Assembly: GCA_017993335.1 (NCBI GenBank)
Contig: JAGOMX010000001.1
Coordinates: forward strand, 4,863-68,862
Direction: 5' to 3'
DNA: 64,000 nucleotides
DNA from: Alphaproteobacteria bacterium
Lineage (GTDB): Bacteria > Pseudomonadota > Alphaproteobacteria > JAGOMX01
The notes under the pieces were generated by a model, which saw only the letters and a list, made by a program, of their open reading frames with translations, was not told where the DNA came from and did not search any database. This document shows positions 1,343 to 42,102 of the stretch, piece by piece (within the stretch, counting starts at the first letter, position 1; the number at the start of each line of letters is the position of its first letter). A program made the translations under genes and the position numbers.

Positions 1343-1453
1343 GGTAGAAATCCTTTTTGTTTCTTGTTCTCGTTCTAGACTAAATCTTATTGGCTATTTT
1401 TGTAAGACAAAAAAGGAAGATTTGATGTGATTCTTATGAAACCATAAGAAAGT

Positions 1454-1496
1454 AAGTTATCTCTTTTACAAACCGAGTGGGTAAGCTGGATTTTCA
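1454..1496. repeat. 43-bp direct repeat copy 1 (aagttatctcttttacaaaccgagtgggtaagctggattttca)
   Basis: Near-identical copy at 4583..4625 (1 mismatch). The two copies bracket the 1953..4420 two-gene segment. Confidence 0.7.
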
Positions 1497-2929: not shown

Positions 2930-4420
2930 CTAACTAAACAGGTCCCCCAGTGTGATTTCGTTGGTTACCAGAGCGGCTGAGTAATCATTGACATTTAAGC
3001 CTTCGGGGGTGATTAACGTCACATAAATTGGCTTATTGGTCTTGCTGTGTGCCTGATACAGGGAGATTTTGCGTTGGATTTCTTCAGTAATCTTCCTAGT
3101 GAGAGTGAATTTCCCCTGATGAAACTTCATTTCGCATAAATTTATAAGTCCATCCGCTCGGTCAATGAGTAAGTCAATTTGACATCCCTCAGCGCCCTCT
3201 CCACCTTTCTCTTTTTTGGGAATCTCTCGCCAACTGCCGATTTCACTCGAAATAACGGAGATGCCCAGAGCGCTCTTAATCTGTTCAATGTGCTTGAGAC
3301 ATACAGATTCAAAGGCATATCCTGACCAACTTCTCCAGGACTGGGATTGCATTTTACTTTCCCAATAGGATTCATTTTTTAGGGTTGAGGAAAGCCGTTT
3401 AGCCACGGGTTCTATCCATCTTAAATAAAATAGAACATATTCGTCGATTACTCGAAAGAAGGTCCCCTTGTTCAGATTCCCATAGGGCGTGAAACTTAAA
3501 ATAAACCCAGCTTCCTCTAGTTCACCCAGTCGTTTTTTAAACATGCCACCGGAAGAGGAAAGGGAGGCTGCTTTTAAAATCTCATCTCTGGAGATTCCCT
3601 GGCGTGCACGTGAAATTATTCGAATTAGCTCGTTATGAGCTTCAGAAGAATCAAAAAGGGATGAGAATAGCGTTTCAAATTCTTGAAAAAGAAACCCGTC
3701 TTTCTGAAAACACAACCTGTTTAAGCTTTGAGCAACGGAGAATCCAGGAAGGATACCATTCAGGTAATGGGGAATTCCTCCGATGGCCATATAAAGCTCC
3801 ACGACTTGGCGCTTATTGTATTTAACGCCTTTATGTACCAAGTAATCTTGCGCCTCTTTGAGAGTAAAGGGCCTCAACGGCATTATGGCCGTCAATCGAT
3901 TATGCAGCCCTCCTTTGGCGTGAATGAGTGTGTCAATCATCCAAGAGGCTGCCGATCCACAGACAATTAATTTCAGAAATGGCAGGGTTGACCATCTTGT
4001 ATTCCAGTAATAATCAAGAGCCTGGATAAATCCTGACTTCGGCGTTGAAAACCATGGGATCTCGTCTATGAAAATGATGAACTTTTTGGATGATTTCGCT
4101 TCCGAAGCCGTTTTTTCAACAGCCTTCGTTAATAATTTAAAGGCATCCAACCAGGTGTGAGGAGTCTGTAGAGGCGTTCCTTCATAAAAAACCTCAGATA
4201 TCCGCTCTGTGAATAACATAAGTTGCTGGGGAAAACTTCCATCTTTCAGGCCCGTTGCTTCAAAATAGACACATTCCTGCCGCATAAAAAAATTACGGAC
4301 GAGAAAGGTTTTTCCCACACGGCGCCGCCCATAAACAGCAACAAACTCAGCCGAAGGACTCTTAAAAAGCCGCTTTAGGGTAGCTTGTTCTTCCCTTCTG
4401 CCAATGATTAAATCTGTCAT
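2930..4420 (-). CDS. AAA+ ATPase of the Arch_ATPase (PF01637) / DUF234 family
   Basis: 496 aa. N-terminus IIGRREEQATLKRLF...EFVAVYGRRRVGKTFLV is the hallmark start and Walker A of the ATPase_2/DUF234 family. A Walker B-like FIIFIDEIPW follows. Confidence 0.8.
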   Translation of the reverse strand: MTDLIIGRREEQATLKRLFKSPSAEFVAVYGRRRVGKTFLVRNFFMRQECVYFEATGLKDGSFPQQLMLFTERISEVFYEGTPLQTPHTWLDAFKLLTKAVEKTASEAKSSKKFIIFIDEIPWFSTPKSGFIQALDYYWNTRWSTLPFLKLIVCGSAASWMIDTLIHAKGGLHNRLTAIMPLRPFTLKEAQDYLVHKGVKYNKRQVVELYMAIGGIPHYLNGILPGFSVAQSLNRLCFQKDGFLFQEFETLFSSLFDSSEAHNELIRIISRARQGISRDEILKAASLSSSGGMFKKRLGELEEAGFILSFTPYGNLNKGTFFRVIDEYVLFYLRWIEPVAKRLSSTLKNESYWESKMQSQSWRSWSGYAFESVCLKHIEQIKSALGISVISSEIGSWREIPKKEKGGEGAEGCQIDLLIDRADGLINLCEMKFHQGKFTLTRKITEEIQRKISLYQAHSKTNKPIYVTLITPEGLNVNDYSAALVTNEITLGDLFS

Positions 4421-4506: not shown

Positions 4507-4582
4507 GGTGGCAGAATTGATTTTATTGGGTCTCAAAAACTATTCTACTAAAACTTCAAAAAAGGGCACAAGTCAGGAAATT

Positions 4583-4625
4583 AAGTTAGCTCTTTTACAA
4601 ACCGAGTGGGTAAGCTGGATTTTCA
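4583..4625. repeat. 43-bp direct repeat copy 2
   Basis: Matches 1454..1496 with one mismatch (t/g). Confidence 0.7.
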
Positions 4626-4704
4626 GTGAGTATTTATGGCTATAAAGTGTGGGAATCTTCCTATGCTAAAACATATTTGTACTTTATAGCCATAAATACT
4701 CACT
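4625..4704. repeat. perfect 24-bp inverted repeat pair separated by 32 bp
   Basis: agtgagtatttatggctataaagt (4625..4648) and actttatagccataaatactcact (4681..4704). Immediately abuts direct-repeat copy 2. Confidence 0.7.
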
Positions 4705-11271: not shown

Positions 11272-11931
11272 TCATAAAAAATATGACTTCAAGATTACTG
11301 CAGCTAAAACTAGCGCCGTTGCATTACGATAAGTTGGTTTTCCCAGCATTCTTGTAATTAATAGTTGCGGCCCATACAGTATTAAAGCTATGACGTTTTC
11401 CCCCATGGGTAGACCCATAAAAATTTCACCTATTGATTTTCGTGTTATTTGGAAACCATAGTTTTGTTCAAGTTTTTCGAATGCAGTTATCATTTGCTTG
11501 TCCATGTTTCCATGCCTGTAGTAGAGGGAACAGAGACAATTGAGAGAGTCTAATGGTCCATATGCTCTCAAAGTATCTTCTGATACGTCATTGGAAAGAG
11601 CGGGTCTTACATAGGAGGCATATAAAATTACATTTCGGTACATATCCTCAGACCAGGGGAACCAGATATCTTCTGACAGGCAAAAGCAGGTAGGCATACG
11701 GTCCACAAAAAGTTTAGACGCTTGTTCCAGATTTTCCGGGTTTAATTTGGTAATGTACTGGGTATCCAAAGTCGCAAGTTTATTATTTAAATCAATAAAT
11801 GACGTTTGTGTATTTTCAGTAACAAATGCTTGTAATGTAGAGTTAGCTCCCTCTATGTCAGAAGCAATTGTCTGCGGACAAAAACTCCACACGAATAAAA
11901 AAACAAGTGCTTTCGTCAGAATATTTTTCAT
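11272..11931 (-). CDS. hypothetical secreted protein
   Basis: Probable start MKNILTKALVFLFVWSFCPQTIAS (signal peptide). No recognisable domain. Confidence 0.45.
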   Translation of the reverse strand: MKNILTKALVFLFVWSFCPQTIASDIEGANSTLQAFVTENTQTSFIDLNNKLATLDTQYITKLNPENLEQASKLFVDRMPTCFCLSEDIWFPWSEDMYRNVILYASYVRPALSNDVSEDTLRAYGPLDSLNCLCSLYYRHGNMDKQMITAFEKLEQNYGFQITRKSIGEIFMGLPMGENVIALILYGPQLLITRMLGKPTYRNATALVLAAVILKSYFL

Positions 11932-12427
11932 AATAATCCCCATAGTTATTGTGAGTTTTCCTATCATTACCAACCTTTATGACTCGACGCAAGTCGATAA
12001 TCTTATCAATAGGCTATTACACAATCTTAGGTTTCTAAAAAGGCTCTATTAACATGATTTCTTTGATAAGTTTCTCGTGGCGTATAAGCTGGAATTACCA
12101 TGGACTCTATGCTTTTAAATGTCTCTTTGGCCCAATCTAGGTCATCATCGTTATCAATAGCCACTGTAACGGTACATATGCTTCCTGGTGTTACTACATG
12201 GCAAACAAGTATTAATTAACCACCTTCTGATTCTGGCGCTCTTATCAAAGTTGCTTTACCTGCACATGCCCCCTTATCAAAAGCGAACACACCTATTACT
12301 TTGAATGAAAAGTCATAATAATTGCGGCCAACATTTTTTCTTGAAAGGTGGGTATCAAATGGGCTACAAATGGCAGACCCTTTGGGTAGACATGTATTTT
12401 ATTCTTTCAATCTTATTGGACTGTCAT

Positions 12428-13618
12428 ATGAAAAAACTTTTCCAAATATTCCTCTCTTTTGTCTTGTTCTTCAGCAGTTCTTTTGCTATTTCCTCCGATG
12501 GATCTGGGCTGCGGAATAGAAAAGCGCCTGTTGTGTATAATTTTATATCGGACGCTACACAACCTTTGTTGGAAGAAAGAGCTCCCCTGGTAACTTATGT
12601 GCAAGAACAGCCGGTGGAGTCAGGGTCGGATACTTTTGAAGGAATTCTCGAGGGTGTGCTTAATCCCATGCAACCAGCCAAGCCATTACATCCCTGCAGT
12701 GTATCGTTTTTAACGGCCAAGCAATCTGCAGAACAGTTTGATGCGGCTGATAAAGGGGACATAAAAGTCCAAAAAGAGATTATTCATAGAGATAATTTGA
12801 TGCTACAATCATGGCCACAGCAAGCTGTTGAAAAATCCATGCATTGGGAGGCCTTAAAAGAAGCCGGGACTGATCCGGCAATAGCTCGCTTTGTGTTCAG
12901 AAAATATAAAAGTCTACCTTGGTTGGATGACCAAAAGATTCAAAATATTTGCCAAATGATTGAGTTGAAAGCCAAAGGCCGAGATCCTCAAGCCTTGTTA
13001 ACTTATAGCAACTTAATTAGCAAGGGGATCTATTTCTCACGCAATGCCCATCTTTCTTTAAAGTGTGTTTTAGAGGCTGGGGTTTTAGGCGAAGCTATGG
13101 GGTACTATTATGCTTTTGAAACCTTAAATATAGCAGGGAAGACTCAAGCGGCTGTCCGATGCGTTCTGATGGCTGCGGAGGCTGGACTTGCTATTGCCCA
13201 GTATGCTGTTTTTATAGCGCATGCGAAGGCATGTGGAAAAATTAAAGACAAACCTAATCTTGTGGAGATAATTGAGCCAACAAAGGAATGGAGCAACTTT
13301 TTAATTGGGAATAGAACCATACGTTTGCATCCTGAGTATGGCTTCATCGGGAAAGAAAATACGGGTATTGTAATGGAGTATCTAGAAAAATCTGCGAATC
13401 AAGGGTTCGTTTTGGCTTTGATGGGACTTGGAGGTTATCAACTCTCGAAGTTTAAACGCCTTCGTCAACAAAAATCCTTGATGACGGCTATGAACGCTTT
13501 TACGAAAGCGGCTGAACTGGGATCTGCCGAGGCTGTGGATTACATTAAAGATATCGAGCTGAACTTTTCCGATAGGAACGAGCCTGTTCAAAAGAGTGTG
13601 ACAAAAGCAATCGAATGA
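12428..13618 (+). CDS. hypothetical secreted protein with Sel1-like helical repeats
   Basis: Signal-peptide start MKKLFQIFLSFVLFFSSSFAISS. C-terminal AAELGSAEA and AAEAGLAIAQY are Sel1/TPR-like segments. Confidence 0.5.
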   Translation: MKKLFQIFLSFVLFFSSSFAISSDGSGLRNRKAPVVYNFISDATQPLLEERAPLVTYVQEQPVESGSDTFEGILEGVLNPMQPAKPLHPCSVSFLTAKQSAEQFDAADKGDIKVQKEIIHRDNLMLQSWPQQAVEKSMHWEALKEAGTDPAIARFVFRKYKSLPWLDDQKIQNICQMIELKAKGRDPQALLTYSNLISKGIYFSRNAHLSLKCVLEAGVLGEAMGYYYAFETLNIAGKTQAAVRCVLMAAEAGLAIAQYAVFIAHAKACGKIKDKPNLVEIIEPTKEWSNFLIGNRTIRLHPEYGFIGKENTGIVMEYLEKSANQGFVLALMGLGGYQLSKFKRLRQQKSLMTAMNAFTKAAELGSAEAVDYIKDIELNFSDRNEPVQKSVTKAIE

Positions 13619-13673
13619 TATGGAAGGGTAGCCTAATTCAGAGACTGTAGCTAATTTCTTCGTAAATAAGTAC

Positions 13674-13718
13674 AGCAAGAAGACTCTTAAAAGGGGCATT
13701 ATCAAATTGCGCTAACAT
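13674..13718. repeat. 45-bp direct repeat copy A flanking SNF2-SWIM cassette
   Basis: agcaagaagactcttaaaaggggcattatcaaattgcgctaacat. Second copy at 17429..17473 (2 mismatches). Confidence 0.7.
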
Positions 13719-13801
13719 AATGATGAATAACCTTGACCAACAAACACCAGAATGTCATTGTCTAACGCAAAACATTGATAATCTTATGAAAAGTAAGGGC
13801 T

Positions 13802-16585
13802 ATGACACTTCCTGCGAAAGTCGAAACTACCTATACTCCACTTAGCATGGCTATTTCGCCAGAGGGAAAGCTGTATTTGAGTCAGAACGAGTTAGCGGGG
13901 GAGTATGTTTCTTATGCTGATATGGAACGGATTAAGGCACTTTTTGTTGAGGGGGATGAGATTGGCCTGTTGCGTTTTGGTTTGACAGAGCTTTCCGAAA
14001 AACTGCCCTTAAGTTTGGACTATTTCTATCAGATCTCCAAAAGTTTCTTCACTGAGGTGTGTAAACTTTCAGGTCTTGACCATTTGTCGGAGAAACAGCT
14101 CAAAGACATCGTCCCTCCACCACAAGAGTTGGAGGAACTGGCCTTGCAGGCCCCTTTTATCGTTGGGGGTGAGTATCTGAATGACTCTTATCTAGCACAG
14201 CTTTGGAAGAAAATGATTAAAGCACTGCTGGTGGAGCTTAACCATTTTGATCATAAACTTGAAAATTATCTGACCGCCCATAATCCCTCTTGGAACAAAG
14301 TGGGACGTGTTTGTTTTCACTTGGCTGAGAATAAAAACAATCCACAACTACCTTTTGCATTTCTAGCGACATACATCAATCGAATGTCCGGGATGGATAC
14401 CCTCAAACATATGACTTTAGGCAAGGCCATGAGGGAGTATGGGGCTGATGGTAAGAATGCGAATCTTCTTTCGATGCTGCTGCCCGTTCAGGGTGTTGCA
14501 GAAAAAAGCCCATTTATTAAAAACCTCGTGGAGACCGGCGCTATTTATCACCCTCAAGGTTGGGATGCAGGGCAAGCTTATCATTTCTTGAAGGCCATTC
14601 CCCTGATTGAAGCAGCAGGGGTGATGGTTAAGGTCCCTAATTGGTGGAATGCAAAGAAACCGCCACGACCTCAAGTCAAGATTTCCGTTGGAAATGAAGA
14701 AGGCCCAACTGTTGGCATGAATGCTTTGCTTGATTTTGAAATGGGCTTTGCGCTTCCTGATGGCGAATCTCTGAGTCGCGCAGAATTCAAGGAACTTCTG
14801 CAAACTCAAGGCAACCTAGTGCAGATTCGTGGTCAGTGGATTGAACTGGATGCCGATAGACTCAATCAGGTGCTATCTTACTGGAAGGATGTCGAAGGCA
14901 AGGTCCAAAAAGAAGGATTGTCGTTTGCACAAGGTCTTCGCCTTATCAATGGCCTGCACAAGAGCTCCCAGCAAAATCCGCTAGAAGAAAATGTTGCAGA
15001 TTGGACCGCCATTTCAGAAGGTCCATGGCTTAAAGAGGCTTTAACAGCTTTGCGTCATCCTGAAAAGGATGAGCTGAACCAACAGATTCAAAGCAAGCTG
15101 AAGTCCTATCTGAAGGCAGATCTCAGACCCTATCAACAGCTGGGTGTGCAATGGCTATGGCATCTCTACTGCCTTCGATTGGGTGGTTGTTTAGCAGATG
15201 ATATGGGGTTGGGTAAAACGATCCAGGTCCTGTCGTTATTCTTGCTAGCCAAGCATATGAATGAAAGTGACAGCCCTCAGCTCAACTTGTTGGTGTTGCC
15301 GGCGTCATTACTGGGGAACTGGGTGGCCGAGGCCAAAAAGTTTGCCCCTGATTTGAAGCTATTGGTTGTTCATAGTTCTTCCGATGGTGTGGATCCTGTT
15401 CAGCTGAAGACGCAACCGGCGTTATCTGGTGTCGATGTTGTTATTACATCTTACGGGTATGTACAACGTTTGCCATGGTTGACGGATGTTCAGTGGAATA
15501 TCATCGTTCTGGATGAAGCCCAAAGCATCAAAAATCCCGGCACCAAGCAAACCCAGCATGTTAAAAAGCTCAAGGCTCATGTGCGCTTTGTCCTGACTGG
15601 TACACCTATCGAAAATCGGTTGCAGGACATCTGGTCTTTGTTCGATTTCACGCTGCCGGGTCTTTTAGGCTCCAGCTCATCGTTTTCCGATTATGGCAAG
15701 AAAATAGCCAAGAAAAACGAAGCTACAGATGGAAAACAAAAGTTTTACGCCGCCATTCGCCATCTGATTAGCCCTTATATATTAAGAAGGCTTAAGACAG
15801 ATAAAAAGATCATTGCTGATCTGCCGGATAAGACTGAAATTAAGGCTTATTGCCCCCTTACAAAACAACAGGCGGCTCTTTATCAGCATGCCGTGGATGA
15901 GCTCAAACGCAGCCTAGAACAAGACATAGACGACATGAAACGGCGAGGGCTTGTGTTATCCTACCTCATGCGATTTAAGCAAATCTGCAATCATCCGAGC
16001 CAATCCCTTGGTCATGGTCAATATGATGGCAACGAAAGTGGTAAATTCATGCGACTTAAGGATATCTGTGAAACGATCGCCTCGAAGCAAGAAAAAGTGT
16101 TGGTGTTTACTCAATATCAGGAGATCATCCCTGCTCTTAGTGAATTTCTCATGGGCATCTTTGGTAAACCTGGTCTGGTGCTCCATGGTGGAACGCCAAT
16201 CAAAAGTCGCCAAAAGTTAGTGGAGACCTTCCAGCAGGATCATGAGTTTCCGTATTTTGTTTTATCTCTCAAAGCGGGCGGAACGGGCTTGAACTTGACG
16301 CGGGCTTCTCATGTGATTCACTTTGACCGTTGGTGGAATCCTGCAGTGGAAAACCAAGCCACAGACAGGGCTTTTCGCATAGGACAAAAGAAAAATGTGT
16401 TGGTCCATAAATTTATATGCCAGGGCACCATTGAAGAAAAGATTGATTATATGCTCGAAACCAAGAAAAATTTGTCCGATCAAATATTGATTCAGGGAGG
16501 GGAAGCTAATCTGACGGAAATGAGCAATGATGAACTGATGAAGCTGGTTCAGCTCGATATCCATCGTGCATTAGGTGAAATGTAA
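13802..16585 (+). CDS. SNF2/RAD54-family helicase (DEAD/DEAH-like ATPase plus helicase C domain)
   Basis: 927 aa with a large N-terminal non-catalytic region. DMGLGKT (motif I), DEAQSIKN (motif II), LTGTPIEN. Helicase-C region LKAGGTGLNLT...FDRWWNPAVENQATDRAFRIGQ. Confidence 0.9.
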   Translation: MTLPAKVETTYTPLSMAISPEGKLYLSQNELAGEYVSYADMERIKALFVEGDEIGLLRFGLTELSEKLPLSLDYFYQISKSFFTEVCKLSGLDHLSEKQLKDIVPPPQELEELALQAPFIVGGEYLNDSYLAQLWKKMIKALLVELNHFDHKLENYLTAHNPSWNKVGRVCFHLAENKNNPQLPFAFLATYINRMSGMDTLKHMTLGKAMREYGADGKNANLLSMLLPVQGVAEKSPFIKNLVETGAIYHPQGWDAGQAYHFLKAIPLIEAAGVMVKVPNWWNAKKPPRPQVKISVGNEEGPTVGMNALLDFEMGFALPDGESLSRAEFKELLQTQGNLVQIRGQWIELDADRLNQVLSYWKDVEGKVQKEGLSFAQGLRLINGLHKSSQQNPLEENVADWTAISEGPWLKEALTALRHPEKDELNQQIQSKLKSYLKADLRPYQQLGVQWLWHLYCLRLGGCLADDMGLGKTIQVLSLFLLAKHMNESDSPQLNLLVLPASLLGNWVAEAKKFAPDLKLLVVHSSSDGVDPVQLKTQPALSGVDVVITSYGYVQRLPWLTDVQWNIIVLDEAQSIKNPGTKQTQHVKKLKAHVRFVLTGTPIENRLQDIWSLFDFTLPGLLGSSSSFSDYGKKIAKKNEATDGKQKFYAAIRHLISPYILRRLKTDKKIIADLPDKTEIKAYCPLTKQQAALYQHAVDELKRSLEQDIDDMKRRGLVLSYLMRFKQICNHPSQSLGHGQYDGNESGKFMRLKDICETIASKQEKVLVFTQYQEIIPALSEFLMGIFGKPGLVLHGGTPIKSRQKLVETFQQDHEFPYFVLSLKAGGTGLNLTRASHVIHFDRWWNPAVENQATDRAFRIGQKKNVLVHKFICQGTIEEKIDYMLETKKNLSDQILIQGGEANLTEMSNDELMKLVQLDIHRALGEM

Positions 16586-16604
16586 GTAAGTAAGGAAAGA
16601 ATTT

Positions 16605-17420
16605 ATGGGGCGTTATGATAACTTTTATCCGGAATATGTACCTGTGGCTGAAAAGAAGAAGCAAGCCGAGAAAAAGATTGCTGCTTTGCGAAAAAAAGGA
16701 ATGGATATTCAACCGGTGGTTATTGAAGGCCAGGCAATCGCGAAAACCTATTGGGGCAAAGCATGGTGCAAGCATTTGGAAACCTACAAGGATTATGCTT
16801 ATCGTTTGGACCGTGGTCGCTCCTATGTGCGACATGGTGCGGTGATCGATTTAAAACTTGAACCTTGTGCCATTCATGCGCAAGTCAATGGTTCATCGCT
16901 TTATAAGGTCAAGATCAAGATAGATCCCGTTCAATCTGCCCGTTGGCAGAGCATTCTGGATTCTTGTTCTGGCAAGATTGGCTCACTTATTGAGTTGTTG
17001 CAAGGTAAGTTTTCTGCGAATGTTATGGAAATTATGACCAATGCAGAGACAGGATTGTTTCCAGGCCAAAAAGAAATCAAATTCGAATGCGACTGTCCAG
17101 ATTATGCGCTCATGTGTAAGCATGTGGCTGCCGTGCTATACGGCATTGGCGCACGTATTGATAACAATCCAGAGGATCTGTTTTCCCTGCGTAAAGCTGA
17201 TTACGCAGATCTTGTTGCCAAGGCAGGAGCAATGACCGCAATTCAACATGAGCTAGATCCCGGCCTTGCGGATGGTGACATTTCTGCCCTCTTCGGCATC
17301 GAAATGGATGCACCCGTGCCTAAAACGAAAGTGGCTGCTAAACCCAAGTTGGTTGCAAAAGCCAAAAAGGCAGTTAAGACAAAAGCGAAGACTGTGAAAA
17401 AGACAGCAAAGAAAGGGTAA
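16605..17420 (+). CDS. SWIM zinc-finger protein with C-terminal Lys/Ala-rich histone-H1-like tail
   Basis: CDCPDYALMCKHVAAVLYG is a CxCx(n)CxH SWIM signature. The last ~45 aa are KTKVAAKPKLVAKAKKAVKTKAKTVKKTAKKG. Starts 20 nt after the SNF2 stop with an AAGGAAAG RBS. Confidence 0.85.
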   Translation: MGRYDNFYPEYVPVAEKKKQAEKKIAALRKKGMDIQPVVIEGQAIAKTYWGKAWCKHLETYKDYAYRLDRGRSYVRHGAVIDLKLEPCAIHAQVNGSSLYKVKIKIDPVQSARWQSILDSCSGKIGSLIELLQGKFSANVMEIMTNAETGLFPGQKEIKFECDCPDYALMCKHVAAVLYGIGARIDNNPEDLFSLRKADYADLVAKAGAMTAIQHELDPGLADGDISALFGIEMDAPVPKTKVAAKPKLVAKAKKAVKTKAKTVKKTAKKG

Positions 17421-17428
17421 TAGGTATA

Positions 17429-17473
17429 GCAAGAAGGCTCTTAAAAGGGGCATTATCAAATTGCGCAAACATA
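17429..17473. repeat. 45-bp direct repeat copy B
   Basis: agcaagaaggctcttaaaaggggcattatcaaattgcgcaaacat. Located 9 nt after the SWIM stop. Confidence 0.7.
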
Positions 17474-17503
17474 CTGGCTTCCAAGGCTTTACATGAGAGA
17501 CAC

Positions 17504-17944
17504 TCATTCCCCTCTTAATCCTTTAAAAAAATCTTGAAGCAATTGTGCGCATAGGGTTTCTTCGATACCGCCATGAACTTCTGGTTTATGGTGACAGGAT
17601 TCTTGTTCATAAATTCTTGGCCCATGTTCAACGCCGCCGCCTTTTGGGTCGTAGGCGCCAAAATAGAGTCTGCGGATACGTGCAAAAGATATAGCTTGGG
17701 CGCACATGGGGCAGGGCTCTAGGGTTACGTACATATCGCATTCTTCTAAACGCATGTTTTGGAAATATTGTGCGGCCAGACGTATAGCTTGAATCTCCGC
17801 ATGGGCTGTTGGGTCTTTGTGTATTTCTACTTCATTGCCGGCGGAGGCAATGATTTGGTTTTTGTGCACGATAACTGCGCCTATGGGGACATCATTATGT
17901 TCTAAAGCTTTTTCGGCTTGAAGGCGTGCAAAGTGCATATACAT
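17504..17944 (-). CDS. tadA: tRNA-specific adenosine deaminase
   Basis: HAEIQAIR and PCPMCAQAI zinc-binding CDA motifs. 146 aa. Confidence 0.85.
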   Translation of the reverse strand: MYMHFARLQAEKALEHNDVPIGAVIVHKNQIIASAGNEVEIHKDPTAHAEIQAIRLAAQYFQNMRLEECDMYVTLEPCPMCAQAISFARIRRLYFGAYDPKGGGVEHGPRIYEQESCHHKPEVHGGIEETLCAQLLQDFFKGLRGE

Positions 17945-31153: not shown

Positions 31154-31597
31154 ATGCCTACATTTATAAACTTAAGTTGGACACAAATCGAAAACGATGC
31201 TCATGCCTTGGCGGATAAGTTAATCCAGTCTCAATTAAAATGGGATGGAATTATAGCTATAGCAAGAGGAGGACTCGTCCCGGCAACTATATTATCTCAT
31301 AGATTGAACATCCATTGGCTAGATACACTGTGCTTAAGTAGCTACAATGATGTAACAAAAAAACAAGGATCTTTGCGTGTCCTTAAAGAATTCAAAAGCG
31401 ATAGCGACAAATTATTGGTTGTTGATGATTTGGTGGATACAGGGGAAACTTTTTTAAAAGTTAGAGACATGCTGCCAAAAGCACATTTTTCCTGTCTTTA
31501 TGCTAAAAAACCCGGCATATCGACCGTTGACACATACACGTTAAAAGTCCCTTCCGATAGTTGGCTGGTGTTCCCCTGGGAGGAAAGTGACACATAG
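31154..31597 (+). CDS. gpt: xanthine-guanine phosphoribosyltransferase
   Basis: Collinear with E. coli Gpt (IIAIARGGLVPA, LVVDDLVDTGET PRPP motif, KAHF). Confidence 0.85.
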   Translation: MPTFINLSWTQIENDAHALADKLIQSQLKWDGIIAIARGGLVPATILSHRLNIHWLDTLCLSSYNDVTKKQGSLRVLKEFKSDSDKLLVVDDLVDTGETFLKVRDMLPKAHFSCLYAKKPGISTVDTYTLKVPSDSWLVFPWEESDT

Positions 31598-31600
31598 AGA

Positions 31601-31737
31601 CCATTTCAAAACGTCTTTTTTGGGTGATTTCGTCGTCAAGGTTCCGCTTCCGGTGCTCACGTACGAAGAGGTACGCTGCGCTCCGGTTCTCACCTTTCCT
31701 ATAAATCCCTCCAAAAAAGACGTTTTGAAATGGCCTC
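31601..31737. repeat. 137-bp MITE-like element copy 1 with perfect 23-bp terminal inverted repeats
   Basis: ccatttcaaaacgtcttttttgg ... ccaaaaaagacgttttgaaatgg. Second copy at 41966..42102, ~95% identical, same orientation. Confidence 0.75.
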
Positions 31738-41896: not shown

Positions 41897-41965
41897 CTGT
41901 TAACTAAACCAGAAAATCATACTTTAATAGTATAAGTCGCATGCCTTAACGTATGATTAAGAGAA

Positions 41966-42102
41966 CCATTTCAAAACGTCTTTTTTGGGTGATTTCGTCG
42001 TCAAGGTTCCGCTTCCGGTGCTCACGTACAAAGAGGTACGCTGCGCTCCGGTTCTCACCTTTCCTATAAATCCCTCCAAAAAAGCCAGTTTTGAAACGGC
42101 CT
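41966..42102. repeat. 137-bp MITE-like element copy 2 (degenerate right TIR)
   Basis: Matches 31601..31737 with ~6 substitutions. Lies between the divergent giant kinase gene and the crotonase-family gene. Confidence 0.75.

Follow-up and report, generated by a model that had tools for sequence, protein, structure and literature searches.

Replacement-type flexible genomic islets are known in which alternative gene cassettes occupy a single slot and are exchanged by homologous recombination through conserved flanks, the O-antigen and capsule loci being examples. Direct repeats of 45-60 bp at the borders of a genomic island are typical of integrase-mediated insertion, and the target duplications known from transposition measure about 2-15 bp. 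The locus described here lies in a 64-kb stretch of DNA (hereafter the window) from contig JAGOMX010000001.1 of an uncultured Holosporales-like alphaproteobacterium, in which a gene for a SNF2-family ATPase/translocase and a gene for a SWIM zinc-finger protein are bracketed by two direct repeats of 58 nucleotides (nt), next to the core gene tadA. An earlier note on this DNA had taken the pair for a discrete cassette that moved in as a unit and duplicated its target, as defence-island cargo would. Comparison with contigs of the same species shows the repeat-bracketed pair to be indeed a discrete, strain-specific segment; the locus is, however, an ordinary accessory-gene swap at a strain-variable slot, with no sign of a classical insertion scar.

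The locus resembles a replacement-type islet in that unrelated genes are found at one position between the same core genes, with sharp breakpoints, a co-divergent neighbouring gene and incongruent patterns of sequence identity. It differs from such islets in that the slot holds only one or two genes, and in the 58-nt direct repeats around one of its alleles, a feature that islands of this kind do not need. The likeness rests on five same-species contigs (L007, L010, L011, L012 and L013), all of them short, with flanks 94-99% identical, and just two of these (L007 and L013) cover the junction on the tadA side. The features of the locus are as follows.

11272-11931, minus strand: open reading frame (ORF) of 219 amino acids (aa), forming the conserved left flank together with parB
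11950-17486, no strand assigned: divergent haplotype block of about 5.5 kb, its right edge set by the return of 97.9% identity to L007 at 17487
12053-12392, no strand assigned: stretch of 340 nt found only in the window, where four same-species contigs have about 28 nt
12428-13618, plus strand: hypothetical protein, 396 aa as annotated at NCBI; the longest ORF runs from 12305 (437 aa)
13632-17486, no strand assigned: strain-specific segment of 3855 nt, made up of 33 nt, repeat copy 1, 79 nt, the SNF2 gene, the SWIM gene, repeat copy 2 and 10 nt
13665-13722, plus strand: direct repeat copy 1, 58 nt
13802-16585, plus strand: SNF2-family ATPase/translocase, 927 aa, with DUF3670, SNF2-related and Helicase_C domains
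16605-17420, plus strand: SWIM zinc-finger protein, 271 aa, intact, with a Lys-rich C-terminal tail
17419-17476, plus strand: direct repeat copy 2, 58 nt, identical to copy 1 at 53 of 58 positions
17504-17944, minus strand: tadA, core gene and right flank of the slot, 95-98% identical in same-species contigs

Two alleles at one slot

In the same-species contigs the 3855-nt segment of the window is replaced by an unrelated segment of 2207 nt (L013:2023-4229). Contig L013 spans the whole slot, in the order 219-aa ORF, homolog of the hypothetical gene, a 601-aa GMC oxidoreductase in minus orientation, and tadA; it is homologous to the window as far as 13631 and again from 17487. The second junction contig, L007, which carries fumC', comF and tadA, is 97.85% identical to the window from 19956 to 17487 and is then unrelated to it, the change falling 10 nt beyond copy 2. 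It bears the same GMC allele as L013, at 99.4% identity, and this allele was found in samples of two different studies. Both repeats lie inside the homology breakpoints, copy 1 by 33 nt and copy 2 by 10 nt. When proteins were clustered at 90% identity, the clusters of SNF2, SWIM and the window allele of the hypothetical protein contained the source genome only; those of ComF, TadA, ParB and the 219-aa ORF included other samples.

No sequence related to the 58-mer was detected in the GMC segment, either by shuffle-tested alignment or with blastn-short and nhmmer, and that segment has no flanking repeats of its own. A visual impression of a diverged 58-mer in the spacers of L013 and L007 proved not to be significant against shuffled sequences. 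It had been suggested that an empty site be sought, in which the upstream gene would be followed directly by tadA with a single copy of the repeat between them. No site with a single 58-mer was found in the small sample of two junction contigs, both of which hold the GMC gene there instead. Since the GMC allele bears no trace of the 58-mer and both copies lie within strain-specific DNA, duplication of a target is not supported, and 58 bp in any case greatly exceeds the target duplications that transposases make. Upstream of the GMC oxidoreductase gene there is a perfect 26-nt palindrome, TTGGATATGATTATAATCATATCCAA (L013:4059-4084), a candidate operator that may overlap a -10-like TATAAT.

More distant genomes were of little help in deciding which allele is the older. 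A search for ComF in species-representative genomes gave only a 32%-identical match in Nitrospina and no close relative. In a relative at about genus level (L014/L015, ComF 58% identical) comF is followed by motAB, tadA is absent, and synteny is too eroded to give polarity. The comparison of base composition and codon usage that the earlier note had proposed gave a divided answer: the G+C content at third codon positions (GC3) of SNF2, 0.47, is the highest of the 48 ORFs in the window (mean 0.38, standard deviation 0.04), while its codon-usage distance is unremarkable. The GC3 of the SWIM gene is 0.43 and that of the GMC gene 0.33. Composition is weak support for a foreign origin or for polarity.

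A divergent block that includes the upstream gene

The strain is distinguished by a block of about 5.5 kb, and not by the gene pair alone. Across parB and the 219-aa ORF the closest relative of the window is L010, with an overall identity of 98% that rises to 100% between 11500 and 11949; L011, L012 and L013 share about 94% with either of them. Beyond about 11950 the identity of the window to all four relatives falls to 78-90% (98% in one 50-nt interval) in every stretch that can be aligned, and among themselves the four show 98-100% over the hypothetical gene. The patterns of identity on the two sides of the breakpoint near 11950 are therefore phylogenetically incongruent. The window allele of the hypothetical gene shows 84-87% nucleotide and 73% amino acid identity to the allele common to the four same-species contigs. 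Because this neighbouring gene is co-divergent, the SNF2-SWIM pair is to be regarded as part of the larger block, and the suggestion that the pair moved in by itself is not supported.

The N-terminus of the hypothetical protein resembles a signal peptide, and a set of 5.8 billion protein clusters contains only two sequences of its family. The label 'Sel1-like' previously given to it could not be confirmed, for a Pfam search relaxed to E<=5 gave no match. On the minus strand of the window-only stretch 12053-12392 there is an open frame resembling a gene fragment, likewise with no Pfam match.

The 58-nt direct repeats

The direct repeats around the SNF2-SWIM pair are real, and at 58 nt they are longer than the 45 nt originally reported. 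Within them a 46-mer core can be delimited at 13674-13719 and 17428-17473, with two mismatches between the copies; the first of these starts, and the number of mismatches, are as had been given, and the second start is displaced by one position from the 17429 of the earlier note. When up to three mismatches were allowed, the 46-mer matched at exactly two places in the window and at none in 100 shuffled sequences. Over the full 58 nt the copies differ at repeat positions 5, 9, 19, 49 and 56, which leaves a central run of 29 nt, CTCTTAAAAGGGGCATTATCAAATTGCGC, identical in both (13684-13712 and 17438-17466). With five mismatches placed at random in 58 positions, an unbroken identical stretch of 29 nt or more has P=0.16, and is not significant by itself. 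Gapped local alignment of 450 nt around the repeats gave no extension past 58 nt, and none into the 3' ends of the flanking genes.

Copy 1 had been placed immediately downstream of the preceding gene; in fact 46 nt separate it from the stop of that ORF (13618), and it ends 79 nt before the ATG of SNF2. Copy 2 begins within the SWIM stop codon (17418-17420), sharing 2 nt with it, and a gap of 27 nt separates its end from the stop codon of tadA, which is convergent. Between the copies lie the SNF2 and SWIM genes only, 19 nt apart, in agreement with the original description of two tightly linked genes.

Within the DNA searched, the repeat is confined to this locus. Repeat searching placed the family at two copies in the 64-kb window, and sensitive searches with blastn-short and nhmmer gave no further copy, whether in the window or in the other loci retrieved. 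The exact 22-mer AAGGGGCATTATCAAATTGCGC had no match in 185,579 species-representative genomes, in JGI metagenomes or in IMG/VR, a search that diverged copies would escape; the exact 23-mer AGCAAGAAGRCTCTTAAAAGGGG had none in JGI metagenomes, exact matching being likewise blind to diverged copies.

The 58-mer also lacks the features of the recombination sites and mobile elements with which it might be compared. Folding of both strands gave results like those of shuffled sequences (z-scores -0.3 to +0.9), its self-complementarity is that of shuffles, and it is not palindromic. Rfam gave no match in the window at the gathering threshold, nor any at E<=1 in the surroundings of the two copies. No tRNA lies nearer than 17 kb, and neither tRNA nor tmRNA serves as a target; a promoter and terminator scan showed no promoter- or terminator-like site at either copy. 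No terminal inverted repeats were found at the ends of the segment (test score 16, against a shuffle mean of 14.4 +/- 2.1). Inspection of ORFs and Pfam matches revealed no recombinase or integrase gene inside the segment or within about 5 kb, and there is no transposase ORF among the genes of the segment and its neighbourhood.

Compared with integron cassettes and attC sites, including attC clusters that have no integrase, the locus shares the order of gene then repeat, and 58 nt falls within the length range of attC; it differs in that neither strand of the 58-mer has the core sites RYYYAAC or GTTRRRY, in the lack of a hairpin or self-complementarity, and in that the cassette is a two-gene operon of 3.7 kb. 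With integrase-type genomic islands it shares direct repeats of tens of base pairs at both borders of strain-specific DNA, and it differs from them in having no integrase, no target in a tRNA or gene 3' end, and no attB-like copy in the alternative allele. It is unlike a transposon or insertion sequence (IS) with target duplication in the length of the repeat, 58 nt, and in having neither terminal inverted repeats nor a transposase ORF. Dispersed repeats of the repetitive extragenic palindromic (REP) or miniature inverted-repeat transposable element (MITE) kind have many copies in a genome and are usually palindromic; the 58-mer is not palindromic and has two copies in the 64-kb window.

Each copy reads on its minus strand from an ATG as M(L/F)AQFDNAPFKSLLA, in ORFs of 26 and 32 codons, and the plus strand of the repeat reads SKK(T/A)LKRGIIKLR. 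The possibility that the repeat is a coding remnant was rejected: there is no convincing ribosome-binding site or link in frame to the neighbouring genes, the SWIM C-terminus is intact by comparison with homologs, and the frames are taken to have arisen by chance. A likeness to dif/XerCD sites or to DnaA boxes, judged by eye, was only partial, and the locus adjoins parAB rather than the terminus; this reading was rejected as well.

Origin of the slot and of the repeats

The explanation that we favour, with moderate confidence, is that the SNF2-SWIM genes are an accessory pair in a replacement-type slot, that the 5.5-kb block has been exchanged by homologous recombination, and that the repeats are the scar of an older capture event. 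The slot, between a fast-evolving hypothetical gene and tadA, holds SNF2-SWIM in this strain and the GMC oxidoreductase in others. The haplotype from about 11950 to 17486 was most likely brought in, or is kept in place, by homologous recombination in the conserved DNA on either side, with parB and the 219-aa ORF on the left and tadA and comF on the right, and no dedicated insertion mechanism would be needed. The repeats, at the inner edges of the non-homologous segment, belong to the SNF2-SWIM haplotype rather than representing a duplicated target. They probably originated when the two-gene module was captured in a donor lineage. A circularised module with a single repeat may have integrated by one crossover, or else unequal crossing-over, or a partial tandem duplication, may have been followed by a deletion. 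The perfect 29-nt core could still allow rare RecA-dependent loss of the operon, leaving a single copy.

Several points weigh against this explanation. The relatives are known from short contigs, two of which cover the tadA-side junction, and the breakpoints at about 11950 and at 17487 could be switch points in a strain-chimeric metagenome assembly; a chimeric contig would shift the haplotype to a co-occurring relative and leave its structure unchanged. The direction of the exchange is unpolarised: GMC could have replaced an ancestral SNF2-SWIM, and the recombinant could be L010 instead of the strain of the window. The count of 58-mer copies covers only the 64-kb window of the source genome. 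Finally, the scar origin of the repeats is inferred, and the divergence between the copies, 8.6%, fits an old duplication and equally recombination between similar, non-identical sequences.

Among the alternatives, it is unlikely, if less so than the others, that the repeats have a function in cis, for example as operator, insulator or protein-binding site, and are kept similar by selection at both ends of the operon, where SNF2/SWIM or a regulator might bind them. The perfectly conserved centre with variable edges and the position of copy 1 upstream of the operon would suit such a role, and a different repeat pair in the window (1448-1496 and 4577-4625) looks regulatory, its copies preceding two minus-strand genes by 106 and 157 nt; yet it is hard to see what an operator would do at copy 2, which is placed between convergent stop codons, neither copy has a promoter- or terminator-like site, RNA structure or self-complementarity, homologs of the module in four other loci lack any such repeat, and the pattern of conservation is not significant (P=0.16). 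Somewhat less likely again is that the repeats are attL and attR, the products of a tyrosine or serine recombinase acting in trans or since lost, with the 58-mer or its 29-nt core as the crossover and the arms as imperfect hybrids. In favour of this, mismatches are found on both sides of a perfect centre, the repeats mark the edges of a segment absent from same-species contigs, and their length is typical of integrase-mediated insertion. Against this stand the absence of a recombinase gene from the segment and from about 5 kb around it, the lack of a tRNA, tmRNA or Rfam RNA as target, with a gene-end overlap limited to the 2 nt of the SWIM stop, an alternative allele without an attB-like copy, four other instances of the module without flanking repeats, and the same chance probability of the perfect run.

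That the copies are two members of a dispersed family of short intergenic repeats, flanking the operon by chance or marking junctions prone to recombination, is improbable. The window does contain other short families, namely a palindromic element of 127-140 nt and a 49-mer with a related third copy in L013, but the 58-mer is unrelated to either of these, is not palindromic and is absent from the public collections searched, and its only two copies in 64 kb lie exactly at the edges of the cassette. The probability is lower still that the ancestral spacer between the upstream gene and tadA held one 58-mer that was doubled when the cassette entered. The repeats do bracket the sole two genes directly, and homology to relatives returns within 10-33 nt outside them; nevertheless no empty site was found, the relatives hold a different gene with no trace of the 58-mer, the repeat far exceeds the length of known transposition duplications, and there are neither terminal inverted repeats nor a transposase. 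Most speculative of all, and to be given very little credence, is the idea that the slot is a dedicated cassette-exchange site, with the 58-mers as sites for an unlinked, unrecognised recombinase or a RecA-independent mechanism that swaps entire promoter-bearing SNF2-SWIM or GMC cassettes. If true, such a site would be comparable in action to an integron that has neither attC sites nor a linked integrase.

The accessory-gene exchange that we favour has little significance beyond this genome. It documents a small strain-variable slot beside tadA, occupied by SNF2-SWIM or by a GMC oxidoreductase, in an organism of this kind; the 58-nt repeats mark the edges of the module, match no known class of recombination site, and could be used to test for its excision. 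As a matter of method, repeats around the pair rightly signalled mobility, while the readings as target duplication and as a defence island failed on comparison within the species.

The SNF2-SWIM gene pair

The SNF2 protein matches the Pfam domains DUF3670 (E-value 7e-30), SNF2-related (1e-63) and Helicase_C (2e-20), and the SWIM protein matches PF04434 with 21.6 bits, above the cut-off of 19.6. From these domains the pair is predicted to be a double-stranded DNA translocase module. The closest solved structure to the SNF2 protein is the Rad54-like SNF2 core of Sulfolobus (1z63); no solved structural relative was found for the SWIM partner. The best NCBIfam model for the SNF2 protein is the SCO1167/SCO6262 family helicase, from which it differs in scoring 542 against a cut-off of 1200 bits. 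To our knowledge the function of the DUF3670-SNF2/SWIM pair has not been characterised, and a literature search for the SNF2-SWIM pair returned nothing specific.

The SNF2 protein is 100% identical to an NCBI protein from a metagenome-assembled genome, 'ATP-dependent helicase [Alphaproteobacteria bacterium]', and its next-best homologs, 59-62% identical, come from Holosporales-like genomes including Candidatus Bealeia. Gene pairs of the same domain architecture, with the SWIM gene directly downstream, are widespread in bacteria: in two Holosporales-like loci (L002 and L004) the helicase is followed by a 297-aa SWIM partner, 53-55% identical to that of the window and with the CxC...CxH residues invariant. 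The neighbourhoods of these two pairs differ. The SWIM partner gene occurs on 118 plasmids; two of these loci were inspected, and there the helicase-SWIM pair has IS elements, toxin-antitoxin genes and integrases as neighbours. None of these four other instances of the module (L002, L004 and the two plasmid loci) has flanking repeats. From its presence on plasmids and in differing neighbourhoods, without repeats, it follows that the SNF2-SWIM module is flexible, horizontally exchanged cargo here and on plasmids, and that the 58-nt bracket is peculiar to this locus among the instances compared.

A small ORF upstream of SNF2 in the window (13720-13845) was considered as a counterpart of the 69-aa ORF that precedes SNF2 in L002 and was found not to be homologous to it. 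In a Wolbachia phage WO record (MN180251.1, 60146-60661) a region 31% identical to the SWIM protein lies within a gene annotated as an SNF2/RAD54 family helicase, so that SWIM and SNF2 appear to occur in fused form in a further intracellular lineage of Alphaproteobacteria.

The SNF2 ATPase core is shared with Zorya ZorD, Dpd DpdE and DISARM DrmD, all of which were matched in PADLOC with E-values from 1e-130 to 1e-30. The PADLOC and NCBIfam matches span the generic SNF2 core only, and the NCBIfam scores fall far short of the family cut-offs: 295 against 1500 for ZorD, 104 against 950 for DrmD and 35 against 500 for DpdE. The window protein differs from these in having no Mrr nuclease domain and no partner genes nearby, for neither ZorABC, nor DpdA-K, nor DrmABC/MII was found adjacent to the pair by inspection of ORFs and Pfam matches. 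The SWIM and upstream hypothetical proteins gave no meaningful PADLOC match. The wider neighbourhood is one of housekeeping genes, with rho, rsmG, parA and parB on one side and tadA, comF, fumC, accC and accB on the other. The pair is accordingly not a demonstrated defence system and the locus shows no sign of a defence island, contrary to what had been proposed for it.

Other repeats in the window

At 31597-31737 and 41965-42091 the window has a palindromic element, MITE- or REP-like and about 127-140 nt long, with arms CCATTTCAAAACGTCTTTTTTGG ... CCAAAAAAGACGTTTTGAAATGG; the two copies are 97% identical, in direct orientation and 10.4 kb apart, and the block between them includes tRNA-Leu(CAA) and a 1758-aa ORF. 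The copies of the 49-nt direct repeat mentioned above (1448-1496 and 4577-4625) are 96% identical, and the minus-strand genes downstream of them occupy 161-1342 and 2930-4420, respectively; the repeat may be a shared regulatory element. The GMC allele has, in its variable spacer (L013:2083-2110), a related copy of 24-28 nt that is reversed in orientation, so that the 49-nt family is dispersed. A perfect 24-nt inverted repeat (4625-4648 and 4681-4704, with a 32-nt spacer) adjoins the second of the 49-nt copies without a gap.

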